A DNA stretch of 64,000 nucleotides, from the NCBI GenBank assembly GCA_937892155.1, contig CALAUG010000021.1, positions 13,653 to 77,652 on the forward strand, read 5' to 3'. Both the position numbers and the translations under genes were made by a program. The notes under the pieces are model-generated. The model had not been told where the DNA came from, made no database searches, and saw only the letters and a list, made by a program, of their open reading frames with translations. Of this stretch, positions 15,268 through 63,410 are shown piece after piece; position 1 is the stretch's first letter; each line of letters opens with the position of its first letter. This DNA comes from an uncultured Bacteroidales bacterium. GTDB lineage: Bacteria; Bacteroidota; Bacteroidia; Bacteroidales; UBA1715.

Positions 15268-16089
15268 TTAATCATTTTTTTTCCTATCCTCTTCGTCGAT
15301 GGCTATTTGATAGTTGTTTATAACGGCACCAGTAACTAAGTTCAAAAGTAAAAATGCAGCTAAACAAAACCATGTTACATGATAGGTTGTAATAACAGCT
15401 GAACTTGTATTAATTAATCCATATTCTGATGCTGTGATTTGGTTATATCTTATATCAGTCCAATCTTCTCCGGTTAGTTCTCTAAATAGTGTAAAAACAG
15501 CTTCTCCTAAATCACCAAACGGATCTGGTGCATTTGCTGGTGCGTTCGGCGCTTTTTCTATGTACAATTCGTAATTTTTTAGTTTTTCATTCTCTAATGT
15601 TGTAGGGTCTGGCAATCGGAACATGTAGACTCCAGCAATGGCGTATAAGTAAACAAAAATTAAAAAAAGTATAAGATTGTAAAACATTGATGTTAATGAT
15701 TTCATCAATACTGTTACAATAAGTTTTATCTCTTTCGAAGTTCGAAGAAGTCGCAATATTCTAAATACACGCAATACACGTAATGCAGTCATCATGGAAG
15801 CATTCGCAAATAGTGTTTCGGGAATATAGCCGATTATGACTAATGTTAAATCGAATACATTCCATCCATCACAAAAAAATTTTTTTATGCTTTCGGCTGC
15901 AATAAATCGTAGAGATATTTCAATTGTAAAAATATATAAGATGACTTCCTGAATTGTACTAATTATGTGGTTGTCTGTAAAAGTTTCGACGCCAATTAAA
16001 ATGGAATTTACAATGATTATTCCTACTATGAATAGTTCAAATATCTTATTGCTCGCAATTAAAGTTGCTGTGTTTTTCAGATTGCTCAT
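15268..16089 (-). CDS. voltage-gated cation channel, BacNav/NaChBac-like single 6TM domain
   Basis: S4 LRVLRVFRILRLLR has Arg at every third residue. Pore helix/filter is FTLFRELTGEDWTDI. Six TM segments, 273 aa. Confidence 0.85.
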   Translation of the reverse strand: MSNLKNTATLIASNKIFELFIVGIIIVNSILIGVETFTDNHIISTIQEVILYIFTIEISLRFIAAESIKKFFCDGWNVFDLTLVIIGYIPETLFANASMMTALRVLRVFRILRLLRTSKEIKLIVTVLMKSLTSMFYNLILFLIFVYLYAIAGVYMFRLPDPTTLENEKLKNYELYIEKAPNAPANAPDPFGDLGEAVFTLFRELTGEDWTDIRYNQITASEYGLINTSSAVITTYHVTWFCLAAFLLLNLVTGAVINNYQIAIDEEDRKKND

Positions 16090-16179: not shown

Positions 16180-16524
16180 CTACATATTTGCTTTTACTAC
16201 AGAATAAATAGAAATTATAAATATTAAAAATAGAACTCCGTTTATTATAATATACGGAGGTACTGTAAACTTGAAAAAAGCTATTATCAGATTTGATATA
16301 AAAAACAATACGCAAAAGATAGCAGCAATAAGTTTTGAGTTAACTGCAGTACCTTGTCTTTCAAAAGAAACGCCGAGACACATGATAGATGAGCAAGCTA
16401 ACATGAAAAAACTTCCTATACCAAGGAGGACAAAATTTTCACTATTTGTTATAGATACAAAAAGATAAGCAAAAAGTGCACTTAAGGCTACTGCTACTAG
16501 TGTTAAAATAGGATTTATCTTCAT
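16180..16524 (-). CDS. hypothetical 4-TM membrane protein
   Basis: 114 aa with four hydrophobic helices. ATG start 6 nt after the stop of the upstream GYF_2 gene. Confidence 0.6.
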   Translation of the reverse strand: MKINPILTLVAVALSALFAYLFVSITNSENFVLLGIGSFFMLACSSIMCLGVSFERQGTAVNSKLIAAIFCVLFFISNLIIAFFKFTVPPYIIINGVLFLIFIISIYSVVKANM

Positions 16525-16530
16525 AGTTTA

Positions 16531-16872
16531 TTATTTATCAAATGGCGGGGGCATCAGTGCCACTAATTTTAATATTTCAGGTAATTGTTCTGCAGTTTTC
16601 CAGTTCGTAAAGCCGGGTTTCCAGATGTAGGAATCCTTCGTTACTTGTTTGTTTGCAATAAGGTTTGATAATTCTTGTTCTGATATTGGACCAACTTGTT
16701 TATTATCAATTATTACATAATAAAATTGCTGGGATTGTAGTGGGTTCATTACACCAGGTACTTGCATGTTTTGCATTGCATAATTCATAGTTTGAACCAT
16801 TTGGCGAGCCATTGCTAAGCCCATGCCAAACTCCACTAATCGATCAATTGAGAAAAAACTGTCTTCATTCAT
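16531..16872 (-). CDS. GYF_2 (DUF4339) domain protein with proline tail
   Basis: FYYVIIDNKQVGPISEQELSNLIANKQVTKDSYIWKPGFTNWKTAEQLPEL matches the bacterial GYF_2 pattern (G-P...W..G...W). Ends in MPPPFDK. Confidence 0.7.
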   Translation of the reverse strand: MNEDSFFSIDRLVEFGMGLAMARQMVQTMNYAMQNMQVPGVMNPLQSQQFYYVIIDNKQVGPISEQELSNLIANKQVTKDSYIWKPGFTNWKTAEQLPEILKLVALMPPPFDK

Positions 16873-16881
16873 ATTTATATA

Positions 16882-17076
16882 TTATAATCCGATTAGACCC
16901 TTTATAAAATTCCAAATTCCTTCTTTTGCTTTGTCCTTAGTTTCGGTAACGAATTCGGATTCATTTATTTTTTCTTTGATGTTGTTCTTAACATCGCTTT
17001 TAATGTCATCAACGATGCCAGATTTTTTTATTGCTTCAACAACAGCTTGTTGTGTATCTATATCTTGTGTACTCAT
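16882..17076 (-). CDS. small charged/amphipathic hypothetical protein (64 aa)
   Basis: ATG start, 9-nt gap to the next gene. Lys/Asp/Glu-rich helix ending in a hydrophobic WNFIKGLIGL. No family recognised. Confidence 0.5.
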   Translation of the reverse strand: MSTQDIDTQQAVVEAIKKSGIVDDIKSDVKNNIKEKINESEFVTETKDKAKEGIWNFIKGLIGL

Positions 17077-17092
17077 TGTCTTATTTTTTTTA

Positions 17093-17118
17093 AAACGGCA
17101 GGAATGACCCTGCCGTTT
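17093..17118 (-). other. GC-rich intra-operon stem-loop (weak attenuator, terminator or processing site)
   Basis: Perfect 10-bp stem aaacggcagg / cctgccgttt with a 6-nt loop, lying between the 96-aa and 64-aa genes. On the minus strand it is followed by only about 4 U, then an A-run. Confidence 0.5.
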
Positions 17119-17125
17119 AATTTAA

Positions 17126-17416
17126 TTAAGCTGTAACCATGCTATAAATGTTCCATGCAGCCCATGCAAAATCGACGATGGCCCATTTTATAGTTGTTTT
17201 TGTCTTTAATGGTTTTACCGTGAAAATCAATATTGCCAATGCTAATGTTGCAATGGTGATAAACCAAATGGCAGTTTCAGCACCAGAAAACATCGTAGAT
17301 AAATTTCCACTTGTTATGGCTTTATAGCAAAGGAAAAAGTAAACGGCAATTAATACTATTTCAATAATTGAAACTATTAATCCAGCTTTGATATTTTTTT
17401 TTGTTGATTCTTCCAT
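17126..17416 (-). CDS. hypothetical 3-TM membrane protein
   Basis: 96 aa with three hydrophobic helices. 17-nt gap from the upstream lipoprotein gene. Confidence 0.6.
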   Translation of the reverse strand: MEESTKKNIKAGLIVSIIEIVLIAVYFFLCYKAITSGNLSTMFSGAETAIWFITIATLALAILIFTVKPLKTKTTIKWAIVDFAWAAWNIYSMVTA

Positions 17417-17433
17417 AATTGTGTAGAATGAGA

Positions 17434-17859
17434 TTATTTCATAGAATTCATCATGTCTAATGCTGCACCAGCAGCTTTCATAGCATCTTCAGGATCGTCT
17501 GAATAAGCTGCTTTAGCAGCTTTACTATATGCGTCTACAGCTTTTTTTGAGGTTTCAAGAGCTTTTTTTACATCCTCATCTTCAGTAGCTTCATCCAATG
17601 TTTTTTTTGCAGATGATACAGCATCATTGATTGCATTGGATGCTTCGTCAACTACATCTGATGTAGCATCTTCCATTGCATCAACAGCTCCAGATGTAGC
17701 GTCTTTCATTGCATCAACAGCTTCTGATGTCGCTGATTTCATTTCTTCTACTGCTGCAGAATACTCGTCTTTTGAATCTTTTGTGTTTGAAGAAGATTCA
17801 CCTGAACATGCAAACATGAATGCTGCACATACAGGAATTAATAATAATGTTTTTTTCAT
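17434..17859 (-). CDS. lipoprotein with 11-residue amphipathic repeats
   Basis: MKKTLLLIPVCAAFMFACSGE (lipobox MFAC). 33-nt coding repeats at about 17657-17755 encode AVDAMKDATSG / AVDAMEDATSD / VVDEASNAIND. Confidence 0.7.
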   Translation of the reverse strand: MKKTLLLIPVCAAFMFACSGESSSNTKDSKDEYSAAVEEMKSATSEAVDAMKDATSGAVDAMEDATSDVVDEASNAINDAVSSAKKTLDEATEDEDVKKALETSKKAVDAYSKAAKAAYSDDPEDAMKAAGAALDMMNSMK

Positions 17860-17930
17860 AAAAATAAATATTTATAAATGCCTACTCTGTTATGGATTTT
17901 CGGTATCCTCCATTTCATATTATTTAATTC

Positions 17931-19268
17931 TTACATTGCTGGTGGTGGAGGAGGGACAGCCCCAAATAATTGAGATAATTCTTGAACATTACCAGCAAGT
18001 TCCCAATTTGCCATACCTTGTTTCCAAACATATGTGTTGGTTGTTAATTGTCCATTTTGTACCATTTGTGCAAGTTGTTGCATATTATATGGACCTGAAT
18101 TTTGACCATTAATAGAAACATTGTATTGTACTTGAGGTGGAGCGGGAGGGGTATTCATTGCCTGATTCATGTTTTGTCCCATGTTATTCATCATGCCTGC
18201 CATTTGCTGACCCATAGCTCCTCCCATCATCATTCCGGTCATCATTCCAGCAGGATTCATTCCGCCGCCGTTGCCACCATTCATGCTGCCCATTTGACCA
18301 AGGTTGCTTGCTGCAGTCTGTAGTACATTTGTTTGTTGATCAAGAGCATGTGCCCCCATAAAGTTGGTTTCCGTTTGCAAGCGTTGTGCACGTTGAGCTT
18401 CTTCTCTTTGAATACGTAAGGTCTCTTCCATGTTTTGAGCATTGATATTTTGCATATCCTGTGCATTTTTTATGTTGAGATCTGTTTGTGCACTAATTGT
18501 TTTTGCTTGTTGCTCTGCTGTTACTTTACGAAGTTCTGCATAACCGTCACTTTCCTTGTCTGGCTCAATTGTTGCCAAATCAAAACCTTTCATGTTTACA
18601 CCAAAATCAGATTCTAATCTTGGTTTTAGATGTTGTGCTATGATTTCGTTTATATCAAGGATTTTCCTTTCCATTTGGAGAACAGGAATACCATTGTCAG
18701 CTGGAATGTTAGTGATGACACCCTTTACATATTTAATAACTGCATCTTTTACTTGTGTCTTGAATTCTTCCAATTCAAAGTTTATTAAACGATGAAGTTT
18801 TATGAATGCTTTATAATCTGTGATATTAAATGTGATGGTGCCTCGCGCAGACATAGGAACTGCAAAATCTAAAAATCTTGGATCAAATACATCAAAATAT
18901 GGTACGGCAAATTTTATTTGTATTATACCAGATAGGTTAATGTAATAGATTTCTGCTTGGAATGGTGTGGCGCCTCCAAAAGCTAATCCAACGATACCGG
19001 AAAGAATAGGAAAGTTTGCTGTTTTTATTGTGTCGTCGTATGGTCCTACAATAAAATCCTGCATAGAACCATCTTTTTGTTTGTACACGAATACAGCGAC
19101 TTCTCCATCTTTAACTCTCAGACTACTACCAAAACGTATAGAATTTTCTTTGTTAGTTGAATTTAAATCAGCACCTGCAGGACGCCATTTCCATACTAGA
19201 TATTCCGCTTCATCACAGCGGATGACATCCATCAATCCACCTTCTTTTCCTTTACTAAATAAACCCAT
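17931..19268 (-). CDS. SPFH/Band-7 family protein of the YdjI ('virion core protein-like', COG4260) type, with low-complexity linker and C-terminal GYF_2 domain
   Basis: The N-terminal 250 aa (MGLFSKGKEGGLMDVIRCDE..YLVWKW...GS.L.V...E.AVF) match the YdjI-type SPFH pattern. Then a coiled coil, an M/G/N/Q-rich tract, GYF_2 (GPYNMQQL...YVWKQGMANW) and a PPPPPAM tail. Confidence 0.82.
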   Translation of the reverse strand: MGLFSKGKEGGLMDVIRCDEAEYLVWKWRPAGADLNSTNKENSIRFGSSLRVKDGEVAVFVYKQKDGSMQDFIVGPYDDTIKTANFPILSGIVGLAFGGATPFQAEIYYINLSGIIQIKFAVPYFDVFDPRFLDFAVPMSARGTITFNITDYKAFIKLHRLINFELEEFKTQVKDAVIKYVKGVITNIPADNGIPVLQMERKILDINEIIAQHLKPRLESDFGVNMKGFDLATIEPDKESDGYAELRKVTAEQQAKTISAQTDLNIKNAQDMQNINAQNMEETLRIQREEAQRAQRLQTETNFMGAHALDQQTNVLQTAASNLGQMGSMNGGNGGGMNPAGMMTGMMMGGAMGQQMAGMMNNMGQNMNQAMNTPPAPPQVQYNVSINGQNSGPYNMQQLAQMVQNGQLTTNTYVWKQGMANWELAGNVQELSQLFGAVPPPPPAM

Positions 19269-19286
19269 TTTCTTACGTGTTATAGA

Positions 19287-20360
19287 TTAAAGAATATCGT
19301 TGTTAACAGCATCTATGCCTTTTTTGATTAAAATGGCAAAAACACAGACTCCTACAAATCCAAGTGTTGCAAGTCCACCAGAAACAATACAACCAATTAT
19401 GAAAATTATAAATGATACTCCCAAGCCAATACCTCTCCAGCTTTTGAATACTGATAATATCTTTTCTTTTTTTGCGTTTTTTTCTGCTTGGAGCTCAGCT
19501 TCAATCTTTCCGTGTAATTCTTGTGGAATTTTTGTGAATCGTTTGTAGTTTTTGGGTAATCTTTTCATTAATGAGATAACCGTGTTTGTTGCTTGCTCAA
19601 GAAATGTTTTGTCGTTTCCTGACATCATAACAATCTTTTGATAGACTTGGTCTGCTTTTTGAATCCAAACTTCCTCTTCCTTGCCAATCACACCATCGTT
19701 ATCATAAGCGTTACTAGTAGCCATTGCTAATAGTTCTAACAAATCCTCTTTGGTATTTGGGACAGGGAAGTTCTTTATCACATTGGCTTTCTCGGCCATT
19801 ATCTTTCTCTCAATTTCTTTAGACTGTTCGTTTAGTTGTCTCATCAAATCTTCACGTTCCTCATCTTGTCTTTCTTTTTTACTACCATTGCCGAAAATAT
19901 CTACAGCGGCATTTAATACACCACTTCCGCTATTATGTCTGGCCGATAGTTCGTTAAGACTTTGTGTTTTTACTTTTTCAAAATCTGCAAGTTCTTTCGA
20001 CTTTTTCATTTCTATTTGTTGCAGCATTTCAAAAAGTTGATTTGCACTTTTGACAGACTCAATACCTTTAAATTCGAAACCACATTCTGGACATTTTGAT
20101 TGGAAACCAGATATTGGTGCACCGCAAGCTGGACATTTTTGCACAACACCATATTTGTTTGACTGTGGGTTTTGTGCAGGTTTCTCAGCTTCTTTCTTTT
20201 TGTTCATTTCAAAAATTCGAGAGTTCAAAACCATCTCAAATTCGTCTTTGTCAATGCCGAAAGCTTCTGCTTTCTTTATCAGAACGTTTTTTTCACTATC
20301 AGTGACTTCTCCATCTGCTAGAGCGGCGGAAATCAAATTTTCAAGTTCTTCGTTATACAT
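19287..20360 (-). CDS. TerB-like N-terminal motif / double zinc-ribbon / C-terminal TM-hairpin protein
   Basis: ALADGEVTDSEKNVLIKKAEAFGIDKDEFEMVL (TerB-like ADG-x-E helix pair). CPACG...CPECG at aa 76-93. Long helical middle. C-terminal GIGLGVSFIIFIIGCIVSGGLATLGFVGVCVFAILI. Confidence 0.7.
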   Translation of the reverse strand: MYNEELENLISAALADGEVTDSEKNVLIKKAEAFGIDKDEFEMVLNSRIFEMNKKKEAEKPAQNPQSNKYGVVQKCPACGAPISGFQSKCPECGFEFKGIESVKSANQLFEMLQQIEMKKSKELADFEKVKTQSLNELSARHNSGSGVLNAAVDIFGNGSKKERQDEEREDLMRQLNEQSKEIERKIMAEKANVIKNFPVPNTKEDLLELLAMATSNAYDNDGVIGKEEEVWIQKADQVYQKIVMMSGNDKTFLEQATNTVISLMKRLPKNYKRFTKIPQELHGKIEAELQAEKNAKKEKILSVFKSWRGIGLGVSFIIFIIGCIVSGGLATLGFVGVCVFAILIKKGIDAVNNDIL

Positions 20361-61884: not shown

Positions 61885-62625
61885 ATGGAAAAGAAAACCT
61901 CCGTTGATTATACTGTTTTAGTCCGTGATACGGATTTTTCCCTGCATTCGTCATTAGAATCGGTGGGAAATATATTTATGAATGCAGCTGGTCTTGATGC
62001 GGAACGCAAGGGCTTCGGCATGGACGCACTTCATAAACAAGGATTGGCCTGGGTTGCTTTACGCATATATATTAAAGTAAATTCATATCCGGCTGCGTTT
62101 GAGAAATTACAAGTTTCTACGTGGGTGGAAAATTGGACGAAACTTACAACACAAAGGGATTGTATTCTTTCTGATCTGGATGGAAAGACGCTTGTGGAGG
62201 TTTCTTCGTTGTGGGCTGTGATAGATTTTAATTCACGTCAGCCTGTGAATTTACAGGAAGCTTTGCCGTCGTATGGTCCATGGCTGTTGGATGAGAAGTT
62301 GTCGATTCGTCCACCGGAAAAGGTTCGTTTGTTGACAAATCCGGAATTGGTTGCAACAAGAAAAGTTGTGTATAGCGACATAGACAGCAATATGCACGCA
62401 ACTAGTTTTAAATATGTGTCGTGGATTTTAGATACAGTTCCGTTGGAAGTGTTCCAAAAACAGTTTGTTTCTGATTTTGAAATAAATTATGTGAAAGAAT
62501 GCCGTTACGGAGAAACTGTGCAGATTTTCCGTGAACAAATAGGAGAGAACGTCTATGCATACGATATTAGAAACCAAGAAAATAGTTCTCTCAACCGTTG
62601 TAAATTAACGTTTTCCAACTTATGA
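61885..62625 (+). CDS. acyl-ACP thioesterase
   Basis: 246 aa double hot-dog pattern (VRDTDFS..., W....V.S.WA.ID..SR.P, YSDID.N.H). TGA/ATG overlap with rsmA. Confidence 0.82.
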   Translation: MEKKTSVDYTVLVRDTDFSLHSSLESVGNIFMNAAGLDAERKGFGMDALHKQGLAWVALRIYIKVNSYPAAFEKLQVSTWVENWTKLTTQRDCILSDLDGKTLVEVSSLWAVIDFNSRQPVNLQEALPSYGPWLLDEKLSIRPPEKVRLLTNPELVATRKVVYSDIDSNMHATSFKYVSWILDTVPLEVFQKQFVSDFEINYVKECRYGETVQIFREQIGENVYAYDIRNQENSSLNRCKLTFSNL

Positions 62626-63410
62626 GTAAAACTCCCGTAAGAGCCAAAAAGAATTTGGGTCAGCATTTTTTGAGAAGTGGCGATACGGCCAAAAATATTG
62701 CTGATTGTTTGCCATTAGTCTGCGGAAATTGTTTGGAAATTGGTCCAGGAATGGGAATTTTAACTCAACATTTGTTAGATAAGCCTCTTCATTTGAAAGT
62801 CATTGAAATAGACGGCGAATCAATAGATTTTTTGCTTGCAAATTCTGTAATAGATCCCTTGCAATGTATTCAGGGCGATTTTTTGAAATTGCCGATGACG
62901 GAATTTTTTGGCGGTGAACAATTTATGGTGATGGGGAATTTCCCGTATAATATTTCCAGCCAGATAATGTTCAAAGTTATCGAAAACAGGGAACTTGTTC
63001 CAGCCGTTGCGGGAATGTTTCAACGCGAAGTTGCACGAAGGATTTGCTCTCCTGCAAGTTCCAAGGAGTATGGCATATTGTCGGTGCTGATACAGGCTTT
63101 TTATGATACCAAATATCATTTTACGGTCGATGAGAACGAATTTAATCCACCTCCCAAAGTTAAGTCTGGCGTGATTTCGATGGTACGCAAAGAAAATTAT
63201 ACCTTGCCATGCGATGAAGCTTTGTTTTTTGAGGTTGTAAAGACAAGTTTTAATCAACGACGGAAAACACTCAATAATTCGTTAAAAAAACTGCTCAAAG
63301 ACAAAAAATTGGACGAATCGGTGGGAATGAAACGCCCGGAACAGTTGTCGGTAGAGGATTTTATTGCATTAACAAACTATATTGCAAAAGAGGTTGGTAG
63401 TTGTCGGTAG
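62622..63410 (+). CDS. rsmA: 16S rRNA (adenine1518/1519-N6)-dimethyltransferase
   Basis: KKNLGQHFL, EIGPGMGILT and GNFPYNISS motifs. Confidence 0.93.
   Translation: MSKTPVRAKKNLGQHFLRSGDTAKNIADCLPLVCGNCLEIGPGMGILTQHLLDKPLHLKVIEIDGESIDFLLANSVIDPLQCIQGDFLKLPMTEFFGGEQFMVMGNFPYNISSQIMFKVIENRELVPAVAGMFQREVARRICSPASSKEYGILSVLIQAFYDTKYHFTVDENEFNPPPKVKSGVISMVRKENYTLPCDEALFFEVVKTSFNQRRKTLNNSLKKLLKDKKLDESVGMKRPEQLSVEDFIALTNYIAKEVGSCR

Follow-up and report, generated by a model that had tools for sequence, protein, structure and literature searches.

Conserved proline motifs flank the GYF_2 domains of a Bacteroidota SPFH protein and its small paralogue

Why would two genes of one bacterial operon both encode a GYF_2 domain that is trailed, within a few residues, by a run of prolines? 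The question is raised by a 64,000-nucleotide stretch of DNA from an uncultured Bacteroidales bacterium (GenBank assembly GCA_937892155.1, contig CALAUG010000021.1, positions 13,653 to 77,652 of the forward strand), the whole of which was analysed and is referred to here as the window. One of the two genes encodes a soluble SPFH protein with a C-terminal GYF_2 domain and the other a small protein consisting of little more than such a domain; an initial annotation of the window had noticed the prolines and proposed that they might be a built-in ligand. That GYF domains recognise proline-rich sequences has been established before, in one case for a bacterium. The apparently new element is a fixed and conserved pairing of GYF_2 with its own flanking proline motifs, on an SPFH protein that is found across the phylum and on its co-transcribed free paralogue.

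Pfam GYF_2 matches both proteins, the small one with 62.3 bits against PF14237, over the Pfam gathering threshold of 25.8 bits, and the proline runs that follow are as quoted in the initial annotation: the small protein ends ...PEILKLVALMPPPFDK and the SPFH protein ...QELSQLFGAVPPPPPAM. The tract, which had been said to begin fewer than ten residues past the domain core, begins exactly 8 residues past position 50 of the Pfam profile in both (written +8 below). The run of SPFH proline codons placed at about 17941–17955 is also real, although it lies one base away from that position (Table 1); the corresponding codons of the small protein are CCC CCG CCA at 16543–16551. A further segment had been missed, TPPAPP at residues 373–378 directly ahead of the SPFH GYF_2 domain, so that the proline-bearing segments of the two proteins read NTPPAPPQVQ, LFGAVPPPPPAM and VALMPPPFDK.

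Such runs are rare in this DNA. Among 56 non-overlapping open reading frames (ORFs; 19.5k amino acids, 3.4% proline) there are only three PPP runs, two of which are the GYF_2 tails, and we rejected chance occurrence on this count; the window contains no GYF_2 domain besides these two. The proline codons are mixed in both tails, which excluded a slippage-prone homopolymer. The third PPP run, unrelated to the GYF_2 tails, is an FNPPPKV motif in an ORF at 62622–63410 on the plus strand, which we take from this motif to be an RsmA/KsgA-like 16S rRNA dimethyltransferase.

Comparison of profiles built from 120 small-protein and 38 SPFH orthologues (hhalign) matched residues 17–112 of the small protein to residues 348–443 of the SPFH protein over 96 columns, with 38% identity and a probability of 98.7%; a BLASTP alignment of the two proteins themselves (37% identity) runs without a gap through the domain, the helix that follows it and the PPP. 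Judged by these alignments, the C-terminal module of the SPFH protein, about 100 residues long, has a free-standing paralogue in the small protein. In the module a Met/Gly/Gln-rich segment precedes GYF_2 and a short helix, directly after which stands, at a fixed offset, a proline motif: polyproline in the SPFH protein and PPx[F/L/I] in the small protein. Because the proteins are paralogous over the module, the tails count as one ancestral feature kept in both copies, and a description of them as two independent occurrences was rejected. When both families are aligned jointly, each proline from +8 to +10 is either unchanged throughout or present in at least 90% of the sequences, which puts these positions level with the GP/W/G/W core of the domain, where G27, P28, W50, G53 and W57 do not vary in either family. 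In one protein, P0267, an SPFH-type GYF_2 domain and a complete small protein are naturally fused.

The homology extends upstream of the domain. Residues 17–48 of the small protein line up in the profile comparison with the MGGAMGQQMAGMMN segment of the SPFH protein, and the low-complexity segment that joins the SPFH part to the module is homologous in the profile alignment to residues 17–40, that is, to the opening part of the small protein. Beyond the shared module, about 16 strongly conserved N-terminal residues are peculiar to the small protein; within residues 1–48, R11, L12, E14, F15, G16, Q24 and M25 are invariant among the 120 closest orthologues, which share 60–100% identity.

Conservation of the proline motifs was followed through a scan of one genome per species, in which at least 578 genomes encode a relative of the SPFH protein; the best 80 loci were analysed, and these span Bacteroidales, Flavobacteriales, Chitinophagales, Sphingobacteriales and Kapaibacteria/Ignavibacteria. 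The SPFH tail holds PPP in 76 of 79 loci and PPPPP in 61 of 79, with a longest run of 2–10 residues and a proline fraction of 0.44, and its first PP lies at +8, +9 or +6 in 49, 14 and 10 loci, respectively. The upstream run is retained as well, PPP being found inside the 14 residues ahead of the SPFH GYF_2 domain in 78 of 79 loci. Indeed, all 120 of the closest SPFH relatives read LFGAVPPPPP... with 5–10 prolines, and NTPPPxP ahead of the domain. All four CCN proline codons are used in the SPFH tail and vary among orthologues; this synonymous variation indicates that it is the protein, not the DNA, that is under selection, and a DNA-level function of the CCN run was rejected accordingly.

In the small protein the motif is precise. 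PP stands exactly at +8 in 64 of 77 loci, and in all 64 of these the residue at +11 is F, L or I, a hydrophobic requirement of the sort seen in short linear binding motifs; PVPF is the sequence in three more tails. At least 90% of the 120 closest relatives share P108, P109 and F111; among these relatives L101, K102, L103, V104, A105 and L106 of the preceding helix are near-invariant, and the ending LKLVALxPPPF is near-universal.

The two genes lie in a four-gene operon that is conserved across Bacteroidota (16180–20360 of the window, minus strand) and encodes a TerB-like/zinc-ribbon/transmembrane (TM) protein, the SPFH–GYF_2 protein, the small GYF_2 protein and a 114-residue multi-TM protein. 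The linkage of the two genes is strict: the small gene is downstream of the SPFH gene in 77 of 79 loci, usually about 20 nucleotides past the SPFH stop codon. A conserved PP motif is absent from both membrane partners (the downstream one contains PP in just 5 of 57 cases), and thus the only conserved proline runs of the operon are those that flank GYF_2 domains; no other conserved proline-rich ligand was found inside it.

We also surveyed GYF_2 proteins at large, using a domain-only profile (50 columns, no tail) that found 13,880 proteins at E ≤ 1e-3 among 1.84 billion cluster representatives, of which the best 150 were analysed. All 133 survey proteins that were scanned match Pfam GYF_2, and 66 match the eukaryotic GYF family (PF02213) as well. 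Over 369 domain instances the proline frequency is low from +1 to +7, where the helix lies (consensus A-x-L-F), reaches 0.24–0.27 at +8 and +9 and stays at about 0.2 to +13; upstream it is 0.16–0.21 from −4 to −13, compared with 0.067 overall. In 110 of 124 proteins the flanks of the domains hold proportionally more proline than parts of the chain that are distant from them (Wilcoxon p = 1.4e-19), and proline, at 2.7-fold, is the only strongly enriched flank residue. Counted per 1000 residues in the 150 proteins, PPP runs number 9.0 in flanks, taken as the sequence within 20 residues of a domain, 1.44 farther away and 0 within the domains themselves, a flank-to-far ratio of 6.3 (bootstrap confidence interval 4.1–10.6). 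An association of GYF_2 with adjacent proline runs, which the initial annotation had singled out as the point to check, hence exists both in orthologues (about 80 loci) and in 150 diverse proteins.

The proline-richest class consists of tails that end the protein no more than 30 residues past the last GYF_2 domain: 47% of these contain PPP and 66% PP, and their proline fraction is 0.26. Some C-terminal tails of distant relatives carry a (Q/G/S)MPxMP variant in place of polyproline. Proteins with many tandem copies of GYF_2 (three or more) stop right after the helix without a proline tail, and we rejected on this ground the idea that the tails are leftover repeat linkers.

What is known of GYF domains bears directly on what such motifs might do. 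The initial annotation described bacterial GYF_2 as essentially without a known function, a statement that has been overtaken: the GYF_2 domain of Myxococcus xanthus GltJ binds a proline-rich sequence of AglZ with micromolar affinity, as seen by isothermal titration calorimetry and nuclear magnetic resonance (NMR; Attia et al. 2024, PMC11135422), so that a ligand class for bacterial GYF_2 had already been suggested. It does so through a non-canonical beta-sheet face, which bears the most conserved residues of prokaryotic GYF domains (PMC11135422) and differs from the binding face of eukaryotic GYF domains. The latter read PPPG-phi (PMC4748815), which the PPP[F/L/I] of the small protein resembles, minus the glycine. 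Full-text literature searches found no study of a bacterial DUF4339/GYF_2/PF14237 domain besides GltJ, and a term search of the main text of Attia et al. (2024) found no mention there of proline runs flanking GYF_2.

The window domains are close to GltJ in sequence and fold. The GltJ (AgmX) GYF domain belongs to the same Pfam family and is their best sequence match in the PDB (7z3c, E 2.3e-7) as well as their best structural match. Models of the two proteins were made with AlphaFold2 (AF2) as single chains, from alignments of 120 and 32 sequences; both show the GYF fold, a beta-sheet packed on helices, with a predicted local distance difference test score (pLDDT) of 80–90 over the domain. Foldseek ranks the NMR structure 7z3c first (E 6.6e-4) and places next eukaryotic GYF domains whose structures were determined with proline-rich peptides; the eukaryotic GYF domains of CD2BP2, GIGYF1/2 and Smy2 share the fold of the window domains (Foldseek 3fma, 7rup, 1gyf). 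The eukaryotic signature, in which G-Y-F comes after GPF-x4-M-x2-W-x3, is not found: the window sequences read GPYNMQQLAQMVQNGQL and GPISEQELSNLIANKQV, with GQL and NKQ in the signature positions, and neither protein matches PF02213, the canonical eukaryotic family, at E 0.01. This is consistent with the description of bacterial GYF domains without the G, Y and F signature residues (Attia et al., PMC11135422); GltJ, like the window domains, is one of these.

There are differences too. GltJ has a proline-rich stretch after its C-terminal helix, ...ELASVLAPRPSKPVIVAPEPVSG, similar to the window proteins but without a run; its GYF domain is N-terminal, beside a zinc ribbon, in a TonB-like gliding-motility protein, and its ligand is on another protein. 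The GYF_2 domain of the window system, in contrast, is C-terminal on an SPFH protein and stands also on a small paralogue, its flanking proline runs are true runs with fixed spacing, and the MglA/AglZ system is not involved.

The models also place the end of the domain. In both domains the predicted C-terminal helix (consensus E-L-x-x-L-F) runs on for about 5–7 residues past the point where Pfam GYF_2 stops, meaning that the true domain is longer than the 50-residue model; L434 and F435 of this helix are invariant in the SPFH orthologue alignment, and many GYF_2 proteins end exactly at ...LF. The tails beyond it were judged from pLDDT by block, which is low: 56 for GAVPPPPPAM, 51 for FDK and 76 for LKLVALMPPP, the last including helix residues, with about 51–65 for the small-protein tail and 57 for the upstream SPFH block NMNQAMNTPP. 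On this indirect evidence, neither a fixed structural role of the tails nor their stable docking in cis is supported.

We tentatively propose that the proline segments may be polyproline-II ligands for the GYF_2 domains of this same two-protein system, bound mainly in trans; that binding we infer. Head-to-tail or heterotypic association had been among the suggestions of the initial annotation. SPFH subunits would then clasp one another's C-termini through GYF_2–proline contacts, in a network that the small paralogue would join as well. Although tentative, this is the best-supported of the readings considered, given the GltJ precedent, the motif-like conservation at a fixed offset, the strict co-occurrence, the natural fusion P0267 and an operon that holds no other proline-rich candidate.

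Several observations weigh against this proposal. The GltJ GYF domain failed to bind the canonical CD2 peptide of eukaryotes, and its target in AglZ is described as a proline-rich sequence rather than as a defined motif (PMC11135422). About 10 of 77 lineages (Alistipes, some Bacteroidaceae and others) have lost the small-protein motif although they keep both GYF_2 domains; the two SPFH proline runs are intact in all of these. The enrichment of proline is symmetric on both sides of the domain and is accompanied by a mild enrichment of Ala, Gln and Ser, as in ordinary linkers. PPP fades with divergence, from 26% of the instances that are at least 40% identical to 3% of those below 30%, in a survey sample that was ranked by, and is hence biased towards, similarity to the window's domains. 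The proline fraction in the flanks of instances below 30% identity is still 0.10, and the fading signal implies that a sharp PPP run at +8 is the trait of a subfamily, mildly Pro/Ala-rich flanks being general. In the lineages without the small-protein motif (L011, L013, L042, L051, L058, L062, L073, L076, L080 and L083) the preceding helix is also changed, and in L013 and L042 the invariant GP of the small protein is altered to GG or GA.

It is also conceivable, though we think it somewhat unlikely, that the prolines bind nothing and merely end the helix and form stiff polyproline-II spacers or bristles that insulate GYF_2 from low-complexity sequence. A passive role of this kind would account for the general enrichment on both sides of GYF_2 with its linker-like Ala, Gln and Ser, for the start of the run exactly at the predicted helix end and for the variable length of the SPFH tail, and GltJ has a proline-rich flank of its own (APRPSKP...APEP) even though its known ligand is a different protein. 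Beyond a C-terminal tail, however, lies nothing that would need spacing, yet tails of this kind are the class richest in proline; one proline suffices to cap a helix, whereas five or more in a row are kept in most SPFH tails; the small protein holds a precise PPx[F/L/I] with an unfailingly hydrophobic last position; and the tandem proteins with three or more GYF_2 domains lack proline tails, so the tail is no remnant of a repeat linker. For the internal flanks a passive linker may still be the explanation. The tails might instead dock a different partner encoded elsewhere while the GYF_2 domains read a proline-rich sequence of another protein, as GltJ reads that of AglZ. The sole characterised bacterial GYF_2 domain does bind a proline-rich sequence on a separate protein, and the loss of the small-protein tail where the domain is kept means that the function of the domain does not need that tail. 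We regard an unlinked partner as unlikely, since the conserved operon offers no candidate with a conserved proline run or another known proline-binding domain, and since reader and motif have been kept together at fixed spacing in both paralogues across phylum-level divergence.

Having reader and motif in one chain, a short and fixed distance apart, also invites the idea of autoinhibition, raised in the initial annotation, in which the tail would cover the ligand face of the GYF_2 domain that it follows until activation dislodges it; intramolecular switching is known in GltJ, though between the zinc ribbon and the linker (PMC11135422). Such autoinhibition in cis is improbable here, and the models lend it no support: modelled tails score 51–76 by block against 85–90 for the domains, and the 7-residue helix that separates domain from motif would probably leave little reach to the beta-sheet face. 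Finally, the codons themselves might matter. Polyproline stalls ribosomes, and a PPP or PPPPP ahead of the stop codon could do so in an EF-P-dependent manner and tune the synthesis of the SPFH protein or of the next gene, given that runs of 3–10 prolines lie within 2–12 codons of the stop and that the small gene usually follows about 20 nucleotides on. Translational control of this kind strikes us as highly improbable, because distant relatives replace polyproline with (Q/G)MPxMP repeats that would not be expected to stall strongly, the small-protein motif tolerates a non-proline third position and demands a hydrophobic fourth, the upstream SPFH run has no stop codon near it, and in the window three genes part the pair and the tail is nevertheless kept.

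Returning to the proposal that the proline segments are ligands, a more specific and rather doubtful form of it treats GYF_2 and its two flanking polyproline segments as a self-complementary clasp. Each SPFH C-terminal GYF_2 domain would read the proline segment of the neighbouring subunit in an assembled ring or cage and so zip the C-termini into a multivalent lattice, which the small paralogue, having the same module and an extra conserved N-terminal helix, would cap, compete with or extend, coupling it to the membrane partners. Were this true, it would be the first bacterial reader–ligand polymerisation module on a GYF fold and would supply a general rule for the proline-tailed GYF_2 subfamily. 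Even the broader proposal would have consequences, as bacterial GYF_2/DUF4339 is very common (the 13,880 cluster representatives above) and only one such domain, that of GltJ, has a known ligand: if the flanking motifs are cognate ligands, a large subfamily gains a concrete and cheaply testable peptide specificity, the phylum-wide SPFH operon, present in at least 578 species genomes, gains a first mechanistic handle on SPFH assembly and partner recruitment, and the Pfam GYF_2 boundary merits being moved out by about 12 residues so as to take in both helix and proline motif. If the tails are passive, the finding shrinks to a compositional signature of GYF_2 linkers.

Two other systems help to place this one. 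The pairing of a reader with its ligand is familiar from SH3 domains and PxxP motifs, in the autoinhibition of Src-family proteins and in multivalent assemblies of SH3 domains with proline-rich motifs. The window system would resemble these by analogy in having a small proline-reading domain and a matching motif in one chain, which would permit autoinhibition or head-to-tail assembly; SH3 is unrelated to GYF_2 in fold and lineage, and the analogy is functional only.

In Bacillus subtilis, YdjI belongs to Pfam Band_7_1 and YdjG carries zinc ribbons; to our knowledge YdjI has no GYF_2 domain. YdjI, also called SamI, is a soluble SPFH protein that is recruited by the membrane proteins YdjG and YdjH (PMC8581546; bioRxiv 10.64898/2026.02.06.704340). 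The window protein is likewise a soluble SPFH protein, with no TM segment visible in its sequence, and shares an operon with small membrane proteins, the upstream one having a zinc ribbon. The gene set is thus like that of the ydjGHI/samGHI membrane-stress module, comprising the soluble SPFH protein, a zinc-ribbon membrane gene (67 of 80 loci have a co-oriented homologue upstream) and a further membrane gene (56 of 80 have one downstream, also co-oriented). It differs from ydjGHI/samGHI in having no adjacent pspA, there being no PspA family match among the 9 proteins scanned, and nothing equivalent to the small GYF_2 paralogue has been described for the B. subtilis system. The features of the locus are collected in Table 1.

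Table 1. Positions in the window of the two GYF_2 proteins, their parts and the neighbouring operon genes
Feature	Position	Strand	Details
Small GYF_2 protein	16531..16872	-	ORF of 113 aa; Pfam GYF_2 at residues 51-99, E 3.5e-17
Small protein, conserved N-terminal helical segment (SFFSIDRLVEFGMGLAMARQMVQTMN...)	16729..16872	-	Residues 1-48; AF2 helices 9-14 and 19-35
Small protein, GYF_2 domain	16573..16722	-	Residues 51-100; Pfam PF14237; AF2 pLDDT 85-90; top Foldseek match 7z3c (GltJ GYF)
Small protein, C-terminal helix extension LKLVALM	16552..16572	-	Residues 101-107; AF2 helix 98-105; part of the fold, outside the Pfam model
Small protein, PPPF motif	16540..16551	-	Residues 108-111; general form PPx[F/L/I], fixed +8 offset
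Soluble SPFH (Band_7_1) protein with C-terminal GYF_2	17931..19268	-	ORF of 445 aa
SPFH protein, SPFH/Band_7_1 domain (PF13421)	18567..19148	-	Residues 41-234; E 2.4e-21; 76.8 bits (gathering threshold 24 bits)
SPFH protein, Met/Gly/Gln/Asn-rich low-complexity segment GGNGGGMNPAGMMTGMMMGGAMGQQMAGMMNNMGQNMNQAM	18156..18296	-	Residues ~325-371; joins SPFH part to GYF_2 module
SPFH protein, upstream proline run PPAPP	18135..18149	-	Residues 374-378; 4-8 residues before the GYF_2 domain
SPFH protein, GYF_2 domain	17976..18125	-	Residues 382-431; Pfam 384-431, E 8.8e-18, 64.3 bits (threshold 25.8); AF2 pLDDT 80-90
SPFH protein, C-terminal helix extension SQLFGAV	17955..17975	-	Residues 432-438; AF2 helix at model residues 64-71 (protein residues 429-436)
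SPFH protein, polyproline tail PPPPP	17940..17954	-	Residues 439-443, then AM and stop; codons CCT CCT CCA CCA CCA
Upstream operon partner, 357 aa	19287..20360	-	TerB-like N-terminus, zinc ribbon, C-terminal TM; weak Pfam TerB and Zn_ribbon
Downstream operon partner, 114-aa multi-TM protein	16180..16524	-	Start codon 6 nt after the small-protein stop
Window-specific insert, three small genes between the GYF_2 genes	16882..17859	-	141-aa Ag473-like lipoprotein, 96-aa TM protein, 64-aa protein

The three genes that part the GYF_2 pair in the window are found in 0, 4 and 0 of the 80 loci and lie outside the conserved module. PADLOC gave no significant match for the SPFH, small GYF_2 or TM proteins, its sole other matches being at E > 1e-3, and an association with anti-phage defence was rejected for want of a model match. 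A further SPFH protein, P0278, combines two GYF_2 domains and proline-rich linkers with a C-terminal TerD domain; the TerD domain, like the TerB-like N-terminus of the upstream gene, ties the system to Ter-type stress modules. The operon's neighbours in the window are a WG_beta_rep lipoprotein and, directly downstream, a single-domain Ion_trans protein of 273 residues (15268–16089, minus strand), which adjoins the operon in 1 of 80 loci and resembles a bacterial voltage-gated-type cation channel.

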